Below, piece by piece: positions 5,440 to 15,376 of a stretch of 64,000 nucleotides of DNA. Positions within the stretch are counted from its first letter, which is position 1. Every line of letters begins with the position of its first letter. The stretch lies in contig CALNYG010000003.1 in the NCBI GenBank assembly GCA_942490825.1, positions 4,105-68,104 of the forward strand, in the 5' to 3' direction. A program made the translations under genes and the position numbers. This DNA comes from Candidatus Moraniibacteriota bacterium. Its GTDB lineage: Bacteria > Patescibacteriota > Minisyncoccia > Moranbacterales > GCA-2747515. The notes under the pieces are model-generated. The model was not told the DNA's origin. It did not search any database and was given only the letters and a program-made list of their open reading frames with translations.

Positions 5440-6312
5440 ATGATAATCGGACACAATAAACAAAAACAACTAATTGACCAAATGCTACAGAAAGAAAGTA
5501 TGAATCACCATGCTTTTATTTTTGCTGGTCCAGAATATATCGGAAAATATAAAATAGCCCAGCAATTTTCAAACGCCTTATCTGAAGGAACTAGTGATTG
5601 CGATTGGCGAAACATAAATCAGCGAGTAAATAGCGATATTACAATTATTGAGCCTCTAGCCGAAGAGAAAAAAGGAATTGTAAAATATAAAAATATATCT
5701 GTTTCACAAATTCGCGAGGCAGTGAGAGTTTTTCATTTATCAGTAGATAAAAAAGCGAAAGTTATAATTATTCGAAACGCACACAAAATGACTGTTGGGG
5801 CTCAAAATGCACTTTTGAAAACTTTAGAAGAACCACCTAAAAATTCTTTTTTAATTTTGACAACTTCTGAAACTTCAAATCTTTTAGACACGATCGTTTC
5901 CCGTTGTTTTAAAATTACATTTAATTTACTTGAAAAAGAAGAATTGCGAGTTTTAAGTGATGACGAGGAATTAATCGATAATGCAATGGGGCGACCAGAA
6001 TTATTACAAAAGATAACTGAAGATCATGAATTTAATGATTGGGTTAAATATTCGGTTGAGCAATTACGATCTTTGGCAAAATTATCCATACATGAAAAAA
6101 TTAATTTGGCGGAATTATTGAGTAAAAAAAATAAAAGCGATTTAGATATTTTCTTGCAAGTTTGGATTTGGAGAATCAGAAATGCTGCTCACAAAACGAA
6201 GAAATATAATTTGTTAAAATTTGCTGACAAGACAGAGAAAGTTTATCATGAGATTCATTCTAGTAATATTAATGTTCGATTGATTTTGGAGGATCTATTT
6301 TTAGGTGTTTGA
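5440..6312 (+). CDS. holB: DNA polymerase III delta-prime subunit (clamp loader)
   Basis: HAFIFAGPEYIGK P-loop-like segment, LKTLEEPP box and SRC motif, about 290 aa. Confidence 0.7.
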   Translation: MIIGHNKQKQLIDQMLQKESMNHHAFIFAGPEYIGKYKIAQQFSNALSEGTSDCDWRNINQRVNSDITIIEPLAEEKKGIVKYKNISVSQIREAVRVFHLSVDKKAKVIIIRNAHKMTVGAQNALLKTLEEPPKNSFLILTTSETSNLLDTIVSRCFKITFNLLEKEELRVLSDDEELIDNAMGRPELLQKITEDHEFNDWVKYSVEQLRSLAKLSIHEKINLAELLSKKNKSDLDIFLQVWIWRIRNAAHKTKKYNLLKFADKTEKVYHEIHSSNINVRLILEDLFLGV

Positions 6313-10016: not shown

Positions 10017-10427
10017 ATGAAAAATGAAAATGAAAAAAAATATGACATTGATCAAGTTGGTTCTATGATTGAAGCTTTGACCAGTACGGTTCAACTTGCT
10101 TTTGATCAAAATGATATAACTAACAGACACTTGAACAATATTGAAAAGGATGTCTCGACCTTGAAGTCTGATGTTTCAGAATTGAAAACTGATGTTTCAG
10201 AATTGAAAACTGATGTTTCAACTTTAAAATCTGAAATGGTGGAAGTAAAAGGCAGATTGGGTAATGTTGAAATTAAATTGGAAAATGTTGAAGATAAAGT
10301 GGATGTTTTGCAAGAAGATGTCACTGATATTAAACATAAATTATCGGAGAAAGTTGATCGGGAGGAATTTAATGCTTTGGAAAAGAGGTTGATTAAATTG
10401 GAAAGGATGGTTTTAGAAAAGGCTTAG
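10017..10427 (+). CDS. Coiled-coil protein with heptad tandem repeats
   Basis: 136 aa containing the DVSTLKSDVSELKTDVSELKTDVSTLKSEM repeat block. Confidence 0.55.
   Translation: MKNENEKKYDIDQVGSMIEALTSTVQLAFDQNDITNRHLNNIEKDVSTLKSDVSELKTDVSELKTDVSTLKSEMVEVKGRLGNVEIKLENVEDKVDVLQEDVTDIKHKLSEKVDREEFNALEKRLIKLERMVLEKA
10149..10232 (+). repeat. 4 x 21-bp in-frame tandem repeat (GATGTTTCAGAATTGAAAACT consensus)
   Basis: Read directly from the sequence. The two central units are identical. Confidence 0.9.
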
Positions 10428-10572
10428 TTTTTTATAAATAATAAGTGTTTTTTGACTTTTATATTGATTGGGTGTAGTATGGATTTATAGGGAGTTAGTT
10501 GATTGGAGAAAAATTGAGTTTGAAAGAATGTTTGTAAGGGATTATTTGTTTAATCTTTTGTGGGTAAAAATA

Positions 10573-10605
10573 GGCTGGTCTCAAGCGGGAGATCAGTCTT
10601 TTTTT
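10573..10605 (+). terminator. Intrinsic terminator T0
   Basis: GGCTGGTCTC-AAGCGG-GAGATCAGTC forms 10 bp including 2 G-U pairs, so it folds only in + strand RNA. T7 follows. Confidence 0.65.
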
Positions 10606-10617
10606 GTTCGCGTGGGG

Positions 10618-10645
10618 TTGACAGGATTTTTGATGTGTGTATAAT
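10618..10645 (+). promoter_or_regulatory. Sigma-70-like promoter of leader U
   Basis: TTGACA (10618-10623), 16 nt spacer, TATAAT (10640-10645). The TTGACAGG start is shared with the promoter at 13844. Confidence 0.55.
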
Positions 10646-10675
10646 ATTAAGTGTTAGTTGATTTATTTTTTTGAA

Positions 10676-10830
10676 ATGAATATACAAAAACAAACAATTT
10701 GGACTTCTTTTATTTTTATGCTGCTGTTCGTCTTTAAGATAGACCGGTTTGTTTTTGTTGATAATAGTTAGAAAGTTAAAATATTTTATCGATAAACATA
10801 AGCTGGTCTCAAAAAGAGGGCGGTTTTTTT
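10676..10830 (+). promoter_or_regulatory. Leader/attenuator-like element U upstream of the ligase operon
   Basis: Short T-rich ORF(s). Region 1 (10729-10733) pairs with region 2 (10741-10750). Region 2 pairs with region 3 (10800-10809, 10 bp including 2 G-U). Region 3 pairs with region 4 (10816-10825), followed by T7. Architecture and sequence are homologous to 13878-14010. Confidence 0.5.
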
Positions 10831-10978
10831 GTTCTTTTAAAATTGGTTTTCAGATTTTTTTGTTCTCCTTGGGTTTTTTCTTTCCACTTTTTTGTTTAGT
10901 TTCTTTTTTGAAAGTGAATGGGAATGTGGAAGGAGGTTTGTTTTTTATTTAAAAATAGATGCCTGAGGGAGGCGAGTT

Positions 10979-12076
10979 ATGAAATCAAATATTACAGCAA
11001 AAAATATAGTGAATTCTCTGAAAAGAGTAAATTTATCTCAGTATAGAAATATAAGCTACTTTGCTTTCTATGGGATGGAACTTGAATGTTTTATAGTCGA
11101 CCAGTCTGGTCGAGCAATTGATTTGACAAGTCCAATTTCTCAGGGGGTTTTTGCACAACTTCGTGCGAATAAAAAAGTTGCTCGGATTTTATGGGCTATT
11201 GGAACTGATTTTGGGCGTAACATGTTTGAAGTTGCGTTTAAAAAATTTAACAATCCAGTTGATTTTATGAAGGCAATGATTTGCCTTTTTGATGCTATTT
11301 CTAAGGATCCAATTGCTCGTAAATGGAGGTTTGTTTTTGGTAATAATCCGGATACGAGTTTGGGTTGGATTAGAGAGAATGAGCGATACAGGGTGCTTTA
11401 TAGTATTGCTAGAAAAAATGGTATTGATTTAATTGATCAGATGGCATCTTTTGCTTCAATGCAGATAAATATTTGTGCGGAAGCTTTTGGAGGGATGTTT
11501 AGCCCGTTAGCTTTTGAATGTTTTAAGGGACTGAGTAATTGGGCACCTGCAATTGCGAGAGATGTTGAATTGTCAGTTAATCCTCTGATAGATAAACAAC
11601 AAGGGAGAGATAGAATTTCAGAAGTCTTTGCAGACTTTGTGAATAAAAAAAATCTAGCCCGATATATAGGAAAGGATTATTTTTACAAAGATTTGAAATC
11701 CGTGATTATAAGCACTCCTCATGTCATTATTCAAAAAGATGGCAAATGGATTCCAGCTCCTTCTGAGAGTTATCCTCAGAAGTTAAGTGAGGCTAACTAT
11801 TCAACTAATTGGCCTGATCTTAGGTCAAGTGGATACAATGGACCTGAAAAAGATCGTAGATTTGAATTTCGTCCATTGGACTCCATGAATCCTTTAACTA
11901 TGTTTCATGTTGTGAATCATTTTGATGGAATTTTAAGAAAAATAGTTAAGTTAGCAAAGAAAGGAGAAATTATATATCAAAGTGAGACAGATTGGCGGCG
12001 TGTTCGTTACAAAAAGGATTATAATTTAGCACGTTCCTTTTTGAATAATGTAGGCATTAAACCTATGGTTATCTGA
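10979..12076 (+). CDS. Carboxylate-amine ligase, glutamate-cysteine ligase family 2 (YbdK/GCS2)-like
   Basis: YGMELECFIVD resembles the GxExE..V(D/N) N-terminal motif of YbdK. WPDLRSS...RRFEFRPLDS resembles its HWDIRP...VEVRVMD C-terminal motif. GAGGGAGG SD precedes the ATG. Confidence 0.6.
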   Translation: MKSNITAKNIVNSLKRVNLSQYRNISYFAFYGMELECFIVDQSGRAIDLTSPISQGVFAQLRANKKVARILWAIGTDFGRNMFEVAFKKFNNPVDFMKAMICLFDAISKDPIARKWRFVFGNNPDTSLGWIRENERYRVLYSIARKNGIDLIDQMASFASMQINICAEAFGGMFSPLAFECFKGLSNWAPAIARDVELSVNPLIDKQQGRDRISEVFADFVNKKNLARYIGKDYFYKDLKSVIISTPHVIIQKDGKWIPAPSESYPQKLSEANYSTNWPDLRSSGYNGPEKDRRFEFRPLDSMNPLTMFHVVNHFDGILRKIVKLAKKGEIIYQSETDWRRVRYKKDYNLARSFLNNVGIKPMVI

Positions 12077-12082
12077 AAACCA

Positions 12083-12119
12083 GAGACGGAGACTCGCACG
12101 CATGCGTAGTCTCTGTCTC
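12083..12119 (+). other. GC-rich 16-bp intercistronic hairpin
   Basis: GAGACGGAGACT-CGCA-CGCA-TGCG-T-AGTCTCTGTCTC, starting 7 nt after the ligase stop. No T-run follows. Confidence 0.6.
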
Positions 12120-12234
12120 ACAAATAAAATTTTATTTTGTAACAACTTCGAATAATAAAAATTCTAAGCAAATACAAAATAAAATAAATTTATTTTTTGT
12201 GTTATTATAAATTCATTATTATTCAAAAAATATT

Positions 12235-13035
12235 ATGTCAAAAAGTCATTATTCAAAATATAGAAAAAAATCGAATATACTTGTAACTTGTGAACATGCT
12301 TCAAAAAGAATTCCTAAAGAGTATGGGCTTTTAGGCTTGACTAGGGAAGATTTAAAAAATTCAAAAGACTGGAATGACGAAGGATCTTACGATGTAATGA
12401 AAAATTTAAGTGAAAAAATCGGATCTAGTTATCTCTATTCAAATGTTTCAAGATTATTCATAGATTGTAATAGAAAATTAAATCCGAGCAATAAAGACAA
12501 GGATAGTTTTTATTCATGCCCAATGAAGACAGAGCTTTTAGTTGAAAAAGATGAAGAAGAAAAATTGATAAAAATTCCTGCAAATATTTATAAAAATAAA
12601 AAGGAATTTTCGTGTGAAGAAAAAAAAAGATACAAAGAATATGTTGAACCTTATGTTAAAGATGGATATAAAATAATTGAAAAAATAAGAGGGAATCATG
12701 AGAAGAGTTTTTTGATTATGATCCATTCATTTTTTCCAGTTTATAATGGAGACAAGCGAAAAACTGATATTGGTGTTTTGCACGAGAATTCTTCTGTAGC
12801 TAAAAAAATTACAAAGAGTTTAAGAAAAAATTCTAATGGTTTAAAAATTGATGAAAATAAACCTTATAAATTAGCAGATGCGGATGGAGCGGTTTTTTAT
12901 AAAGTTCAAGAAGAAATGGATGATGTTGAATTGATTGTTTTTGAATTGAATAATAAAAATTTACGGACAAAGACAGGGGTAAATAAAATTTCTAGTTTAA
13001 TTTATAAGAGTTTGAAAGATATTGGAATTGTATAA
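12235..13035 (+). CDS. N-formylglutamate amidohydrolase (FGase)-family hydrolase
   Basis: ILVTCEHASKRIP start, VSRLFIDCNR, LIMIHSF and ENKPYK segments match the characteristic FGase-family blocks. Confidence 0.65.
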   Translation: MSKSHYSKYRKKSNILVTCEHASKRIPKEYGLLGLTREDLKNSKDWNDEGSYDVMKNLSEKIGSSYLYSNVSRLFIDCNRKLNPSNKDKDSFYSCPMKTELLVEKDEEEKLIKIPANIYKNKKEFSCEEKKRYKEYVEPYVKDGYKIIEKIRGNHEKSFLIMIHSFFPVYNGDKRKTDIGVLHENSSVAKKITKSLRKNSNGLKIDENKPYKLADADGAVFYKVQEEMDDVELIVFELNNKNLRTKTGVNKISSLIYKSLKDIGIV

Positions 13036-13082
13036 AAGTAGAAAATTAATTTTAAAAAGTGAGTCAAATATTATAGTATTTT

Positions 13083-13826
13083 ATGAATAAAAAAATTTTA
13101 GTTTTACAATTTAGATCAGAAGATTTAGCTTCAGATAATGAGTTTGAAGATGTAATTTTAGGGATTGGCGGTTTAAAGGAGAATGAAGTTCATCGAGTTC
13201 GACTTGAACATGGTGAGATGTCAGAAATTAATTTAGATGATTATAATGGTGTGATTGCTTGTGGAGGTCCGTATGATTCCAGTAAGCCAGCTAAAGAAAA
13301 ATCTGAAAGTCAAATCAAGTCTGAAGAGAAATTTTCTGAAATTATCAAGGAGGTGATTGAAAAAGATAAATTATTTCTATCTATTTGTTTTATTGGTCTT
13401 GTAAATAAAATTTGTGACGGTAAAGTTTCTAAAGAGAAATATTCAGAAGATCCAGCAGTTGTTGATGTTATTTTAACGGAAGAAGGTAAAGAAGATAAAA
13501 TTACCAATGGAATTTCTGATAAATTTAGAGCTATCGTGGCACATAAAGAGGCTTGGCAAAATGCTGGAGAGGGCGTGACAGTTTTGGCTGAATCAGAAGG
13601 TTGTCCATTTGAATTGATGCGTGTTAAAAATAATGTTTACGCTTGTCAATTTCATCCTGACTTAGATGTTGGTGGGTTAGAATTTAGATTAAATATTTAC
13701 AAGAACTTTGGGTATTGTGATCCAGATGAGATTGAGGAGATTATTGGTGGTATGAGAGGGGAAGATGTGTCTGAATCTTTAAAGATTTTAACTAATTTTG
13801 TTGGATTTTGTAGAGAAGTTGAATAA
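13083..13826 (+). CDS. Class I glutamine amidotransferase-like protein
   Basis: Nucleophile-elbow-like LSICFIG and ACQFHPD (the usual form is QFHPE). About 247 aa standalone GATase1. Confidence 0.55.
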   Translation: MNKKILVLQFRSEDLASDNEFEDVILGIGGLKENEVHRVRLEHGEMSEINLDDYNGVIACGGPYDSSKPAKEKSESQIKSEEKFSEIIKEVIEKDKLFLSICFIGLVNKICDGKVSKEKYSEDPAVVDVILTEEGKEDKITNGISDKFRAIVAHKEAWQNAGEGVTVLAESEGCPFELMRVKNNVYACQFHPDLDVGGLEFRLNIYKNFGYCDPDEIEEIIGGMRGEDVSESLKILTNFVGFCREVE

Positions 13827-13843
13827 TATTAGTTAGTAGGCTA

Positions 13844-13871
13844 TTGACAGGTATTTTTATTTGAATATAAT
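13844..13871 (+). promoter_or_regulatory. Sigma-70-like promoter of leader D (probably leaderless mRNA)
   Basis: TTGACA (13844-13849), 16 nt spacer, TATAAT (13866-13871). The ATG at 13878 begins only 6 nt after the -10 box. Confidence 0.55.
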
Positions 13872-13877
13872 GTAATT

Positions 13878-13931
13878 ATGAATTTGAAATTACAAACAAC
13901 TAAATCACTTTGGTGGTGGCGATCTAACTAA
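13878..13931 (+). CDS. 17-aa leader peptide MNLKLQTTKSLWWWRSN
   Basis: Three consecutive TGG codons (13911-13919) lie directly 5' of RNA region 1. The stop codon lies in the loop of the 1:2 hairpin. Confidence 0.45.
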   Translation: MNLKLQTTKSLWWWRSN

Positions 13932-14010
13932 AGATCAGCTTGTTTTTGTTTATAAAAAAATTTAAACTTTCGTAAATAATATTAGCTGATCTTTTAGGTC
14001 GGCTTTTTTT
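13918..14010 (+). promoter_or_regulatory. Attenuator D: alternative 1:2, 2:3 (antiterminator) and 3:4 (terminator) structures
   Basis: 13918-13925 pairs with 13932-13940. 13930-13940 (AAAGATCAGCT) is the perfect complement of 13984-13994. 13984-13991 pairs with 13997-14004 (8 bp, 2 G-U), followed by T7. Confidence 0.55.
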
Positions 14011-14057
14011 GTTTTGCATTAATTTAAGTTTTTAAATAAAAACAAGGAGAATTTATA

Positions 14058-14214
14058 ATGCCTAAGTCAAAAGAAAAAATGTCCACACTGTAATACAGTA
14101 CTTATAAAAAAGAAAGGCAAAAGAAGTTGTTCTTTTGGTTCTTCAAAAAAAGATGGCGTATGGGTTTGTCCAAATCAGCCTCATTGTGCAAAAAAAAGAT
14201 TTAGTTCTACCTAA
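14058..14214 (+). pseudogene. Small topoisomerase-type C4 zinc-ribbon ORF interrupted by a frameshift in an A-run
   Basis: AAGGAG SD then ATG 14058 gives MPKSKEKMSTL*. The +1 frame continues KCPHCNTVLIKKKGKRSCSFGSSKKDGVWVCPNQPHCAKKRFSST*. Deleting one A from GAAAAAATG would join them into a 51-aa protein. Confidence 0.45.
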
Positions 14215-14241
14215 AAGTTTCTTAATTGGCTAGATTAAATG

Positions 14242-14276
14242 ATTCGTGTTGGTGATTTCACTGGCACGAATTTTTT
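14242..14276 (+). terminator. Intrinsic terminator
   Basis: ATTCGTG-TTGGTGATTTCACTGG-CACGAAT followed by T6. Confidence 0.6.
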
Positions 14277-14327
14277 CTTTTTACGAAAGGGTTAGAAAAT
14301 AAAAAAAATAATTTTATCACAAAACCT

Positions 14328-14353
14328 AAAAAGCCTGTGCAGCGAGCACAAAA
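14328..14353 (+). repeat. R1 box, degenerate short form
   Basis: AAAAGCCTGTGCAGCGAGCACAAAAA has two substitutions relative to the GCCCGTGCGGCGAGCAC core. Confidence 0.6.
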
Positions 14354-14602
14354 AAATAACATTAACAATTTATTAAATCAAAACCACAAAAAACAAAAAA
14401 TCAACAATTTAAATACAAAAAACCGTTAAAAATTCCCAAAAACAACAAATATTCACGATTTTTATTTTTTGAAACTCTAAAAAATAAAATAAATAATGAT
14501 AAGTTTTTTAAAAAAATTAAAATTATTGACAATACTTGATATTATCCCTATTTTGGAATAGAATAAAATCATAATATACAATAATCTTAAAAAATAAAAA
14601 CT

Positions 14603-15376
14603 ATGAAAAGTTTTATCAAAAATGAAGACATAATCAGATATTTAAATAAAACAAAATCATTAGCTTTAATTTTTGGTTGCTTTGTTTTAGTTTTTCTTTT
14701 AGCTTTAGTACTTATCGATGCAAAAGAAAGTGCACCAAAAAAAACAGTTTCAGTTATTGGAGCAATTGAAGAAAAAATTTACAAGGACGCACAGTTTTCT
14801 TTAGATTTTGTTGCATACGGATTAAATGAAGAAGACGCAAAAAAGAAAATTGATGATAAAGTTATTGAGATTAAAGGATCAGTAGAAAACTTTGATGAAA
14901 TTATAATTGGTAAAGTGAAGACGGATGTAACAGTCGAATGTATCGTTAGTCAAGGACAATATTATCAAGCCCAGACAACAGAAAACGGTGTATGTTTAAG
15001 TAACAACTGGCGAGCCCAATCAAGAATTAAAATTTTAATTAAAGGAAATAAATATACAGAGAAAATTAAAAATAAATTTTTGAGTTTAGCACCAAATATT
15101 GTAAATACTGCAAGCGGTCCAGTTTTTATCAAAAAAGAAATTGATGATGAATTTAAAGAATTACTTATTGAAAAAGCAATGGCAAATGCTGAGGTGAAAG
15201 CAAGTAAAATGGCTACAGAGAGTAATAAAAAATTAGGAGAGGTTATTCGAATAAATGAAGATCCAATTGTTAATAATAATTTGATGTCTGTGCGAAGTGA
15301 GGATAAAGTTATTCTTGGCCCAGGTGAAGATTTAGTAAAGAAAGAAATTTTGGTTGAGTACGAGTTAGAAAATTAA
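14603..15376 (+). CDS. SIMPL/DUF541-like secreted protein
   Basis: N-terminal TM anchor. The C-terminal LIEKAMANAEVKASKMATESNKKLGEVIRINED block resembles the conserved SIMPL-domain C-terminus. Confidence 0.45.
   Translation: MKSFIKNEDIIRYLNKTKSLALIFGCFVLVFLLALVLIDAKESAPKKTVSVIGAIEEKIYKDAQFSLDFVAYGLNEEDAKKKIDDKVIEIKGSVENFDEIIIGKVKTDVTVECIVSQGQYYQAQTTENGVCLSNNWRAQSRIKILIKGNKYTEKIKNKFLSLAPNIVNTASGPVFIKKEIDDEFKELLIEKAMANAEVKASKMATESNKKLGEVIRINEDPIVNNNLMSVRSEDKVILGPGEDLVKKEILVEYELEN

Follow-up and report, generated by a model that had tools for sequence, protein, structure and literature searches.

The 64-kb stretch of DNA analyzed here (the window) carries, at positions 13844 to 14010 of the + strand, a small module composed of a promoter, a leader open reading frame (ORF) with three consecutive Trp codons, and RNA segments that can form alternative antiterminator and terminator hairpins upstream of a small gene. 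We think it probable that this locus is a ribosome-mediated (leader-peptide) transcription attenuator that senses the charging of tRNA-Trp, with the Trp specificity predicted from its codons only. The host belongs to Candidatus Moranbacteria/Moraniibacteriota within the Patescibacteria (the candidate phyla radiation, CPR), the window proteins being closest to metagenome-assembled genomes of that group; the window is ~29% G+C and uses the standard genetic code. The parts of the Trp-type module are as follows:

13844-13871, + strand: promoter, with TTGACA at 13844-13849, a 16-nt spacer, and TATAAT at 13866-13871 (12/12 match)
13878-13931, + strand: leader ORF MNLKLQTTKSLWWWRSN with its stop codon, 17 codons, ATG 6 nt 3' of the -10 box, probably leaderless
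13892-13899, + strand: region 0 ACAAACAA, leader codons 5 to 8, possible partner of U/G tract 2b as judged by duplex energy
13911-13919, + strand: three TGG codons, the proposed regulatory codons, kept in relatives and singled out by footprint folding
13918-13925, + strand: region 1 GGCGATCT, pairs with region 2; anti-antiterminator or pause hairpin
13931-13943, + strand: region 2, 5' strand of the 13-bp antiterminator helix 2:3
13940-13955, + strand: U/G tract 2b TTGTTTTTGTTTATAA, the best-conserved block of the family, pairs with the segment just 5' of region 3
13981-13994, + strand: region 3, shared by the antiterminator (as its 3' strand) and the terminator (as its 5' arm), the same nucleotides serving in both helices
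13996-14010, + strand: region 4 AGGTCGGCT and T7, 3' arm of the terminator and U tract (terminator scan 13984-14004; -10.2 kcal/mol)

The promoter is one of just two perfect TTGACA-16-TATAAT sites in the 64 kb, the second belonging to a paralogous module at 10618, and equivalent promoters lie 5' of modules in three related genomes described below (L131, L132, and L084). TGG accounts for 0.78% of the window codons; TGGTGGTGG is present three times in the window, and by frame arithmetic on the coordinates only the copy at 13911 is in frame as WWW. This run abuts or overlaps region 1, which pairs with AGATCAGCT at 13932-13940 with one bulged A and with the stop codon in the loop. The sequence at 13930-13940 is a perfect 11-nt complement of 13984-13994, and the 2:3 duplex is predicted at -15.4 kcal/mol, compared with -3.5 +/- 1.7 kcal/mol in shuffled sequences, none of which is as good (0 of 1,000). 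The locus as a whole folds with a z score of -4.7 (0 of 200 shuffles fold as well), and the 44-nt segment spanning 1:2, which includes a second small upstream hairpin, reaches -11.3 kcal/mol, a value matched by none of 300 versions with region 1 shuffled. Tract 2b is a predicted pause- or terminator-like tail of hairpin 1:2. At equilibrium the naked RNA forms one extended hairpin, made up of 1:4 and 2:3, which likewise stops at the T run, and thus the untranslated state is predicted to be terminator competent too. The promoter, the ATG at 13878, the ORF with its three TGG codons, the 1:2 and 2:3 pairings, and the T7 tract are all found where the original prediction, made by a model from the sequence alone, had placed them. 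Its 3:4 terminator is confirmed as well, as a pairing of 9 bp (13984-13992 with 13996-14004, including two G-U pairs, with the T run at 14004-14010).

The relative placement of codons and hairpins was examined by folding the leader up to the first U of the tract with the nucleotides from -15 to +12 around the ribosomal A site blocked, and reading out the pairing probability of the six bases before the U tract (region 4). For the Trp locus, the values are as follows:

Ribosome absent: 0.83
Any of codons 2 to 10 in the A site: 0.81 to 0.83
Leu-11 in the A site: 0.50
First, second, or third Trp codon in the A site: 0.19, 0.06, and 0.03
Arg codon in the A site: 0.14
Ser, Asn, or stop codon in the A site: 1.00

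The modeled geometry follows the off/on/off scheme of classical attenuation, the codon run lying at the required place. The trpL-like stalling geometry claimed from the sequence alone is reproduced in this model, the predicted read-through window falling exactly on the Trp codons. The other four Trp-type modules show the same open window of three to five codons centered on the Trp codons, and in Leu-type modules most positions along the Leu run leave the terminator open. For the hydrophobic type, opening occurs with the A site on codons 14 to 19; among these, every module has one or more rare CUG Leu codons, and the modules of the window and L132 have two.

What the analysis shows is the anatomy of the sequence, its conservation, covariation in helix 2:3, and the modeled geometry; we infer leader translation, ribosome stalling, termination, and the physiological signal. 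The reading agrees with the original prediction, and the steps would be as follows. Transcription would start at or next to the A of the ATG at 13878, yielding a leaderless mRNA on which a ribosome translates the 17-codon leader. When charged tRNA-Trp is scarce, the ribosome would pause when one of the three UGG codons occupies its A site, covering region 1; region 2, with its U/G tail, would then pair with region 3 as the antiterminator, region 4 would stay single-stranded, and RNA polymerase would read through into the small gene 47 nt downstream, which is led by a Shine-Dalgarno (SD) sequence. When translation is fast, the ribosome would reach the stop codon in the 1:2 loop and cover region 2, so that 3:4 forms and the transcript ends at about 14010. 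If no ribosome is present, 1:2 and 3:4, or the long 1:4 plus 2:3 hairpin, would end at the U tract, and termination would result. The locus would act as the Trp member of a three-type family (hydrophobic/CUG-Leu, Leu-run, and Trp-run) that drives hypervariable small genes.

Eleven homologous modules are present in five related Candidatus Moranbacteria genomes, the two window copies and nine more in L084, L130, L131, and L132. All of them lie 3' of the same coiled-coil gene, with a SIMPL gene on the far side in the window and in L130 to L132, and they fall into three types whose order is fixed (hydrophobic, Leu-run, Trp-run). The leaders are as follows:

Hydrophobic type: MNYFIKTIWTLKKFILFVLIGRGQFVFANKN, 31 codons in all four
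Leu-run type (LLLSLLLL): MNKVFQIKINLLLSLLLLKKRSACFCL and MNNNLQTRRNLLLSLLLLKKRLVCFCL, 27 codons
Trp-run type (WWW or WW): MNLKLQTIESRWWWRSN, MSLKTQTIELFWWWRSK, MNLKIQTTKRFWWRSN, and MNLNKQTIDKQVWWWRSYQRSACFCL, 16 to 17 codons in four and 26 in L084

All 11 modules can be aligned end to end (alignment A3). A covariance model built from them (R1), the kind of search by which the original prediction proposed to probe the relatives, finds only those 11 in 455 kb that include 30 unrelated control loci, with no further copies in the remaining 60 kb of the window or at the other loci scanned. Scores are 97 to 128 bits on the + strand and 23 to 33 bits on the - strand. Homologs lacking both the Trp run and the complementarity, the case that the prediction had raised against itself, are not seen; the Trp run is present in the five Trp-type modules, and helix 2:3 and the terminator are present in 11 of 11. 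Because the Trp locus belongs to a three-type family, what had looked like an orphan trpL-like element is seen as one of several codon-run leaders grouped in one region.

The relatives were retrieved through the upstream sortase gene, together with one pattern-scan match (L084), and all belong to a single narrow clade (sortases at least 80% identical); the family is known from five closely related genomes only. Synteny is lost in more distant genomes, and in the sortase-linked loci L133 to L138 it is gone or the contig is too short. Scanning metagenomes with the sortase alignment gave two distant loci only, neither with modules, and two scans of viral collections gave no match. A terminator-pattern scan of the genome collection returned nearly all chance terminators, with two useful Moraniibacteriota matches, one of which is the ortholog L084.

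Helix 2:3 forms in all 11 modules, at -12.8 to -18.4 kcal/mol, and in alignment A3 93.7% of its cells are paired, compared with 31 to 45% when the 3' partner is slid by one to three columns. Two-sided changes occur at 7 of the 13 pairs, a level matched by 1 of 500 shuffles. From the alignment only, RNAalifold predicts exactly this helix and adds six pairs that join the U/G tract to the stretch just 5' of region 3; one of these pairs alternates among U-A, U-G, and C-G. Many of the pairs are G-U, and the structure is therefore specific to the + strand. A hairpin with a U run that reuses the region 3 nucleotides is likewise present in 11 of 11 modules (-6.5 to -11.5 kcal/mol), and since these nucleotides belong to both 2:3 and 3:4, the two helices are mutually exclusive. 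The outer 1:4 stem dominates the single-sequence folds of both window copies, but the long hairpin (1:4 plus 2:3) was rejected as a conserved structure, 1:4 being no better than shuffles across the family; the predicted conserved feature is the alternative of 2:3 and 3:4 and not a single extended hairpin. Trp- and Leu-type modules form helix 1:2 (-7 to -12 kcal/mol for the 44-nt segment), which is weak in two hydrophobic-type modules. A matrix of cognate and noncognate 2:3 energies is not discriminating, because the family has a common consensus and tolerates G-U pairs.

The U/G block AGRYCRGYTTGTTTTTG gives RGQFVFA in hydrophobic-type leaders and RSACFCL in those of the Leu type and of L084. 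Since its frame differs between types, its conservation is at the nucleic acid level; this would be explained by pairing with two or three partners, together with a role as U tract after hairpin 1:2. One candidate partner is region 0 (ACAAACAA, codons 5 to 8), whose duplex with 2b is energetically significant in most Trp- and Leu-type modules; the pairing is of low complexity and is weak in the Trp copy of the window.

Several features point, indirectly, to the leader as a translated ORF. The ATG lies 6 to 7 nt 3' of the -10 box in five of five Trp-type modules, whose mRNAs are probably leaderless, whereas Leu- and hydrophobic-type leaders have 5' untranslated regions of ~20 to 35 nt as estimated from the -10-to-ATG distance. 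An SD-like motif precedes only 3 of the 53 long ORFs of the window, and many ATGs lie a few bases 3' of a -10 (TATAAT) box; SD-less and leaderless initiation is therefore the apparent norm in this genome and not peculiar to the Trp leader. WWW is kept in L131 (4105), L132 (11146), and L084 (2266), with WW in L131 (3665), so that the five Trp-type modules span four genomes including the window. The three codons before the run vary (SL, SR, LF, RF, QV) and TGG, CGA, and TCN are constant, the Ser codon after the run being TCT, TCG, or TCA. Within a type, ORF length and stop position are constant despite 10 to 42 nt differences. Between L131 and L132, three codons of the Leu run differ by five nucleotide changes, all synonymous, and two of these codons are outside the paired segments; rare CUG and CUA Leu codons are far commoner in the Leu-run leaders than in the genome. 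In the closest hydrophobic-type pair, the changed codons are 4 synonymous to 5 nonsynonymous in frame, compared with 1:9 and 0:8 in the two other frames.

The genes behind the modules, here termed cargo, are variable. Those of the two window modules and the terminator that closes the Trp-type unit are as follows:

14044-14213, + strand: cargo of the Trp-type module, a C4 zinc-ribbon ORF with SD AAGGAG at 14044-14049, ATG at 14058, and a weak zinc-ribbon Pfam match
14241-14272, + strand: terminator closing the cargo unit, TTCGTGTTGG...CTGGCACGAA, with near-identical arms behind unrelated cargo in L130, L131, and L084
10979-13826, + strand: cargo of the hydrophobic-type module, three genes (a 365-amino-acid [aa] protein without a family match, an FGase-like amidohydrolase, and a PRK07567-like class I glutamine amidotransferase [GATase])

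From the T run to the cargo ATG at 14058 is 47 nt with no usable promoter between, and the cargo SD lies ~35 to 40 nt 3' of the terminator, outside the alternative helices. In Trp- and Leu-type modules generally, the U run is 40 to 62 nt from the cargo ATG, again with no usable promoter in the gap; the exception is a 102-aa ORF behind the L132 Leu-type module, ~220 nt from the U run. Genes directly behind the modules, here and in the relatives, have strong SDs (GAGGGAGG, AAGGAG, and TAGGAGG; the ATGs at 5440, 10979, and 14058 are among those examined), GAGGGAGG being the one 5' of 10979. These strong SDs fit internal initiation on a long structured leader transcript. As had been noted from the sequence, no Trp gene is attached to the locus and the downstream zinc-ribbon ORF (14058-14213, MPKSKEK / CPHCNTVLIKKKGKRSCSFGSSKKDGVWVCPNQPHCAKKRFSST) is frameshifted, being in frame only with one A fewer in the A7 run at 14076-14082, a 1-nt shift that could be due to misassembly, to the ORF being a pseudogene, or to slippage within the run.

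Trp-type cargo elsewhere comprises another zinc ribbon (L084), 56-aa and 49-aa proteins (L131), and 478-aa and 136-aa proteins (L132). At the position behind the hydrophobic leader, L130 has a 448-aa protein and an ArgE/DapE M20 deacylase, and the other relatives have small Cys-rich or Lys-rich proteins. The cargo genes differ between genomes and are mutually unrelated; the stretch from the coiled-coil gene to the SIMPL gene is thus hypervariable, with cargo replaced in each genome and the order of the leader modules kept. The arms of the 14241-14272 terminator recur behind unrelated cargo, and therefore the ends of the cassettes are conserved as well as their starts. No defense family is matched by the cargo genes in PADLOC, and the 365-aa protein used as a query of the genome collection gave no match. 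We note that the hydrophobic-type cargo of both the window and L130 includes amidohydrolases that could release amino acids. The GATase homolog of the closest relative is located elsewhere, without a leader; a synteny search through this upstream GATase gene was abandoned, as the nearest homologs sit elsewhere and have no leader element.

A number of points weigh against ribosome-mediated attenuation. The cargo has no visible link to Trp or any other amino acid, no assigned family, and no common function (Pfam, NCBIfam, PADLOC, and a PDB sequence search), and the Trp-type cargo of the window itself is frameshifted. The footprint model is an equilibrium approximation with an assumed footprint and not a measurement, and the hydrophobic type is less clean in it. 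Neither helix 1:2, whose register is type specific, nor the 0:2b pairing shows covariation, and in the L084 ortholog the 1:2 loop no longer holds a stop codon. Synonymous and nonsynonymous counts for Trp- and Leu-type pairs are overall no better in frame than out of frame. Finally, with a TGG run that extends into region 1 and an amino acid that has only one codon, constraints at the nucleotide and amino acid levels are inseparable, and RNA constraint could contribute to the conservation of the run.

An alternative is a terminator/antiterminator switch that is independent of translation, in which a factor acting in trans (an RNA-binding protein, a small RNA, or a metabolite) picks 2:3 or 3:4, for instance through the strictly conserved UUGUUUUUGUUUG tract, and the ORF is incidental or secondary. 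In its favor, the best-conserved block is U/G tract 2b and not the codon run, its frames differ between types, the TGG run overlaps region 1, and the synonymous and nonsynonymous counts give no clear coding signal for the Trp type. However, the conservation of 2b is explained by two pairing partners and the U-tract role, and such a switch would not account for ORF starts, lengths, and stops that are conserved within each type, for an ATG 6 to 7 nt 3' of the -10 box in five of five Trp-type modules, for a Leu run kept through five synonymous changes, or for a terminator-opening footprint window that coincides with the codon runs. There is also no Rfam match to a riboswitch, T-box, or protein-binding leader at E values up to 10, and we consider a factor-operated switch unlikely.

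It is quite unlikely, in our view, that the modules are independent small genes, coding for small proteins or for sibling small RNAs acting in trans, with 2:3 a by-product of tandem terminator copies and with cargo that the modules do not regulate. Five window hairpins do have common arms (GCTGRTCT / AGRYCRGYT, then T-run GTT), hairpin 1:2 with its U tract resembling 3:4 with its U tract and both resembling the terminator of the coiled-coil gene (H0, below), and each module has a near-consensus promoter and a terminator, as in a small-RNA gene; moreover, released attenuator RNAs can act in trans in Sinorhizobium meliloti (PMC6614838). In the Leu type, however, region 1 no longer resembles region 3, nor region 2 region 4, and yet 2:3 is kept at 11 to 12 bp, with a C-G to U-A exchange between genomes. 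Helix 2:3 is also better conserved than 1:2, a helix that competes with its own terminator would be senseless in a plain gene for a small RNA or small protein, and most cargo starts 40 to 62 nt after the U run without a promoter of its own. The Trp-type peptide is variable in its middle and not hydrophobic, unlike a type I toxin, and no conserved antisense promoter is seen. Type I toxin-antitoxin systems were set aside on this account, the peptide being polar and the minus-strand model scores low.

Recombination or mobile-element scars (integron attC-like or miniature inverted-repeat transposable element-like hairpins) that mark cassette boundaries without a regulatory role would suit long imperfect hairpins flanking small ORFs and, from the coiled-coil gene to the SIMPL gene, hairpin modules that persist where the cargo differs in every genome, but they are highly improbable, as no integrase or transposase is present among the flanking genes examined, the modules carry promoters, fixed ORFs, and U-run terminators in a fixed (hydrophobic, Leu, Trp) and not scattered order with no further copy in the window, and the G-U pairs make the structure RNA and strand specific. 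T-box, TRAP-like, and integron attC readings were considered and are not supported.

Probable ribosome-mediated attenuation in a CPR bacterium, placed in front of small variable genes and not biosynthetic ones, looks new for such organisms. Three codon specificities are present on one homologous scaffold in front of small, rapidly replaced genes. CPR bacteria probably cannot make these amino acids. If the reading is correct, the modules give a direct handle on nutrient sensing in an uncultivated, probably host-dependent (episymbiotic) bacterium and are a natural case of attenuator specificity changed by replacement of leader codons with the RNA switch kept. The module is also a compact regulatory part of ~135 nt, and the small proteins downstream are flagged as candidates for induction by starvation. 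We suggest tentatively, as a broader reading that may well not hold, that this Moranbacteria clade, whose members are very small and probably dependent on a host, reads its amino acid supply (Trp, Leu, and hydrophobic/CUG-Leu) through a fixed series of interchangeable attenuators on one RNA scaffold that serve as platforms for fast-turnover accessory proteins. This would be a "ribulon," a term taken up below, wired to accessory or host-interaction genes and not to biosynthesis, in which released RNAs may act in trans through the U/G tract.

Other features of the region are as follows:

10618-10830, + strand: paralogous hydrophobic-type module, with promoter at 10618-10645, ORF at 10676-10771 (MNIQKQTIWTSFIFMLLFVFKIDRFVFVDNS with its stop codon), region 2 at 10740-10752, and region 3 at 10798-10809
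10802-10830, + strand: 3' end of that module, with terminator at 10802-10823 and T run at 10824-10830 (106.8 bits for the module against model R1)
10572-10599, + strand: terminator H0 of the coiled-coil gene, with arms of the same sequence family as regions 1 to 4, identical in L084 and L131
Variable stretch: window 10427-14603, L130 1568-4739, L131 2272-4716, L132 9511-13969, and L084 1893-2392
Extra spacer of 134 to 157 nt behind hydrophobic modules: window 10830-10978, L130 1876-2010, L131 2690-2847, and L132 9777-9921

The paralog at 10618-10830 is 76% identical to the Trp-type locus, with compensatory differences in regions 2 and 3, and the two have the AGAYCRGYTTGTTTTTGTT block in common. 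A CCC reading of this module in the +1 frame of 10676 (TGC TGC TGT ... TAG) was dropped, as that frame is without a start codon. The spacer behind hydrophobic modules opens with a conserved stretch, GTTCTTT..TTTTGGTTTTCAGAT. At 10452-10606, the 3' region of the coiled-coil gene including H0 has arm sequences and the motif GTTAGTTGATT in common with the modules, and its L084 counterpart gives a weak model score of 33.5 bits; judging by sequence likeness, this stretch may be a decayed module or an ancestral terminator. Since the H0, 1:2, and 3:4 hairpins have common arm sequences, the scaffold may have arisen by terminator duplication, which is a hypothesis of origin and not of function.

Outside the variable stretch, a dispersed intergenic repeat, AAAGC-CCGTGCGGCGAGC, has 10 copies in the window against 0.04 expected (at 1935, 8711, 14335, 30770, 34256 on the - strand, 36622, 38189, 58926 on the - strand, 61260, and 62066 on the - strand). 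What follows is either AC with a run of T or of A, or else an additional hairpin CTGCCTATCGGCAGACAGGCAC, and four copies are preceded by TGTATCATAGC. The repeat is also present in the relatives L130, L131, and L002 and looks like a structured element similar to repetitive extragenic palindromes or a terminator family. GC skew flips sign, and cumulative skew is maximal, near 46 kb of the window, where gene orientation also switches, and this resembles a terminus or origin of replication. In L006 (1370-1850), a relative whose GATase is 66% identical, the spacer 3' of the GATase gene is transfer-messenger RNA-like, judged by eye only, with a GGGGCT... 5' end and a tRNA-like ...TCCACCA 3' end.

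Leader-peptide attenuation is a textbook mechanism of amino acid biosynthetic operons, mostly of Proteobacteria and Actinobacteria. The E. coli trpL peptide ends in GWWRTS, and the Trp locus leader ends in WWWRSN, both thus having consecutive Trp codons followed by Arg, Ser/Thr, and the stop. Also as in E. coli trpL, the stop codon is placed so that the terminating ribosome covers region 2, and the untranslated RNA is likewise expected to terminate. The two are alike, too, in having four segments with 1:2, 2:3, and 3:4 pairings, of which 3:4 plus the U run is the terminator (PMC6614838). Unlike trpL, with which it has no sequence homology, the Trp locus has a leader without an SD that is probably leaderless, variable small cargo (here a zinc ribbon) in place of trp biosynthesis, an AT-rich Patescibacterium host, and Leu-run and hydrophobic sister modules on the same scaffold. 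In Rfam, no family is matched at the gathering score anywhere in the window, and at E values up to 10 the 10400-14600 region gives only chance microRNA-like hairpin matches; by this comparison, the locus is not homologous to Trp_leader or other amino acid leader families.

In mycobacteria, leaderless polycysteine short ORFs are ribosome-stalling attenuators, with several per genome forming a "ribulon" (Canestrari et al., 10.1101/834739). The Trp locus is similar in having a short ORF, probably leaderless, in which codons for one amino acid are repeated in a row, upstream of genes that would lie on the same transcript. It differs in having an intrinsic terminator and U run, and hence predicted transcriptional control, where the mycobacterial leaders mask a ribosome-binding site, and in having Trp or Leu codons and cargo without an amino acid link, as opposed to Cys codons and cysteine metabolism cargo. 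In S. meliloti, a trpL attenuator lies 5' of trpE(G) and the released RNA, rnTrpL, can have functions of its own (PMC6614838). Both systems have a Trp-codon leader and a terminator, and termination releases an RNA of ~110 to 140 nt; the Trp locus does not precede trpE(G), however, and a role in trans for the Moranbacterium RNA is pure speculation.

Leader-peptide attenuators have been predicted in Actinobacteria and by surveys of premature terminators (PMC1262725, PMC2965389), and these resemble the Trp locus as computationally defined codon-run ORFs with alternative hairpins outside the Enterobacteria, but they precede genes for amino acid biosynthesis or aminoacyl-tRNA synthetases. We found no literature report of leader-peptide attenuation in Patescibacteria or CPR, in keeping with the claim of novelty made from the sequence. 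With the attenuator class, the Trp locus has in common a codon-run ORF at region 1, an intrinsic terminator before the cargo, an exclusive and conserved antiterminator, and the geometry of the footprint model. It departs from the class in that its cargo (49 to 478 aa in relatives) does not make, import, or charge the amino acid of the codon run, a usual feature of such systems and not part of the mechanism. From the described cases that we found, the Trp locus differs in its phylum, in its cargo, and in belonging to a family with three specificities on one scaffold (PMC1262725, PMC2965389, PMC6614838).

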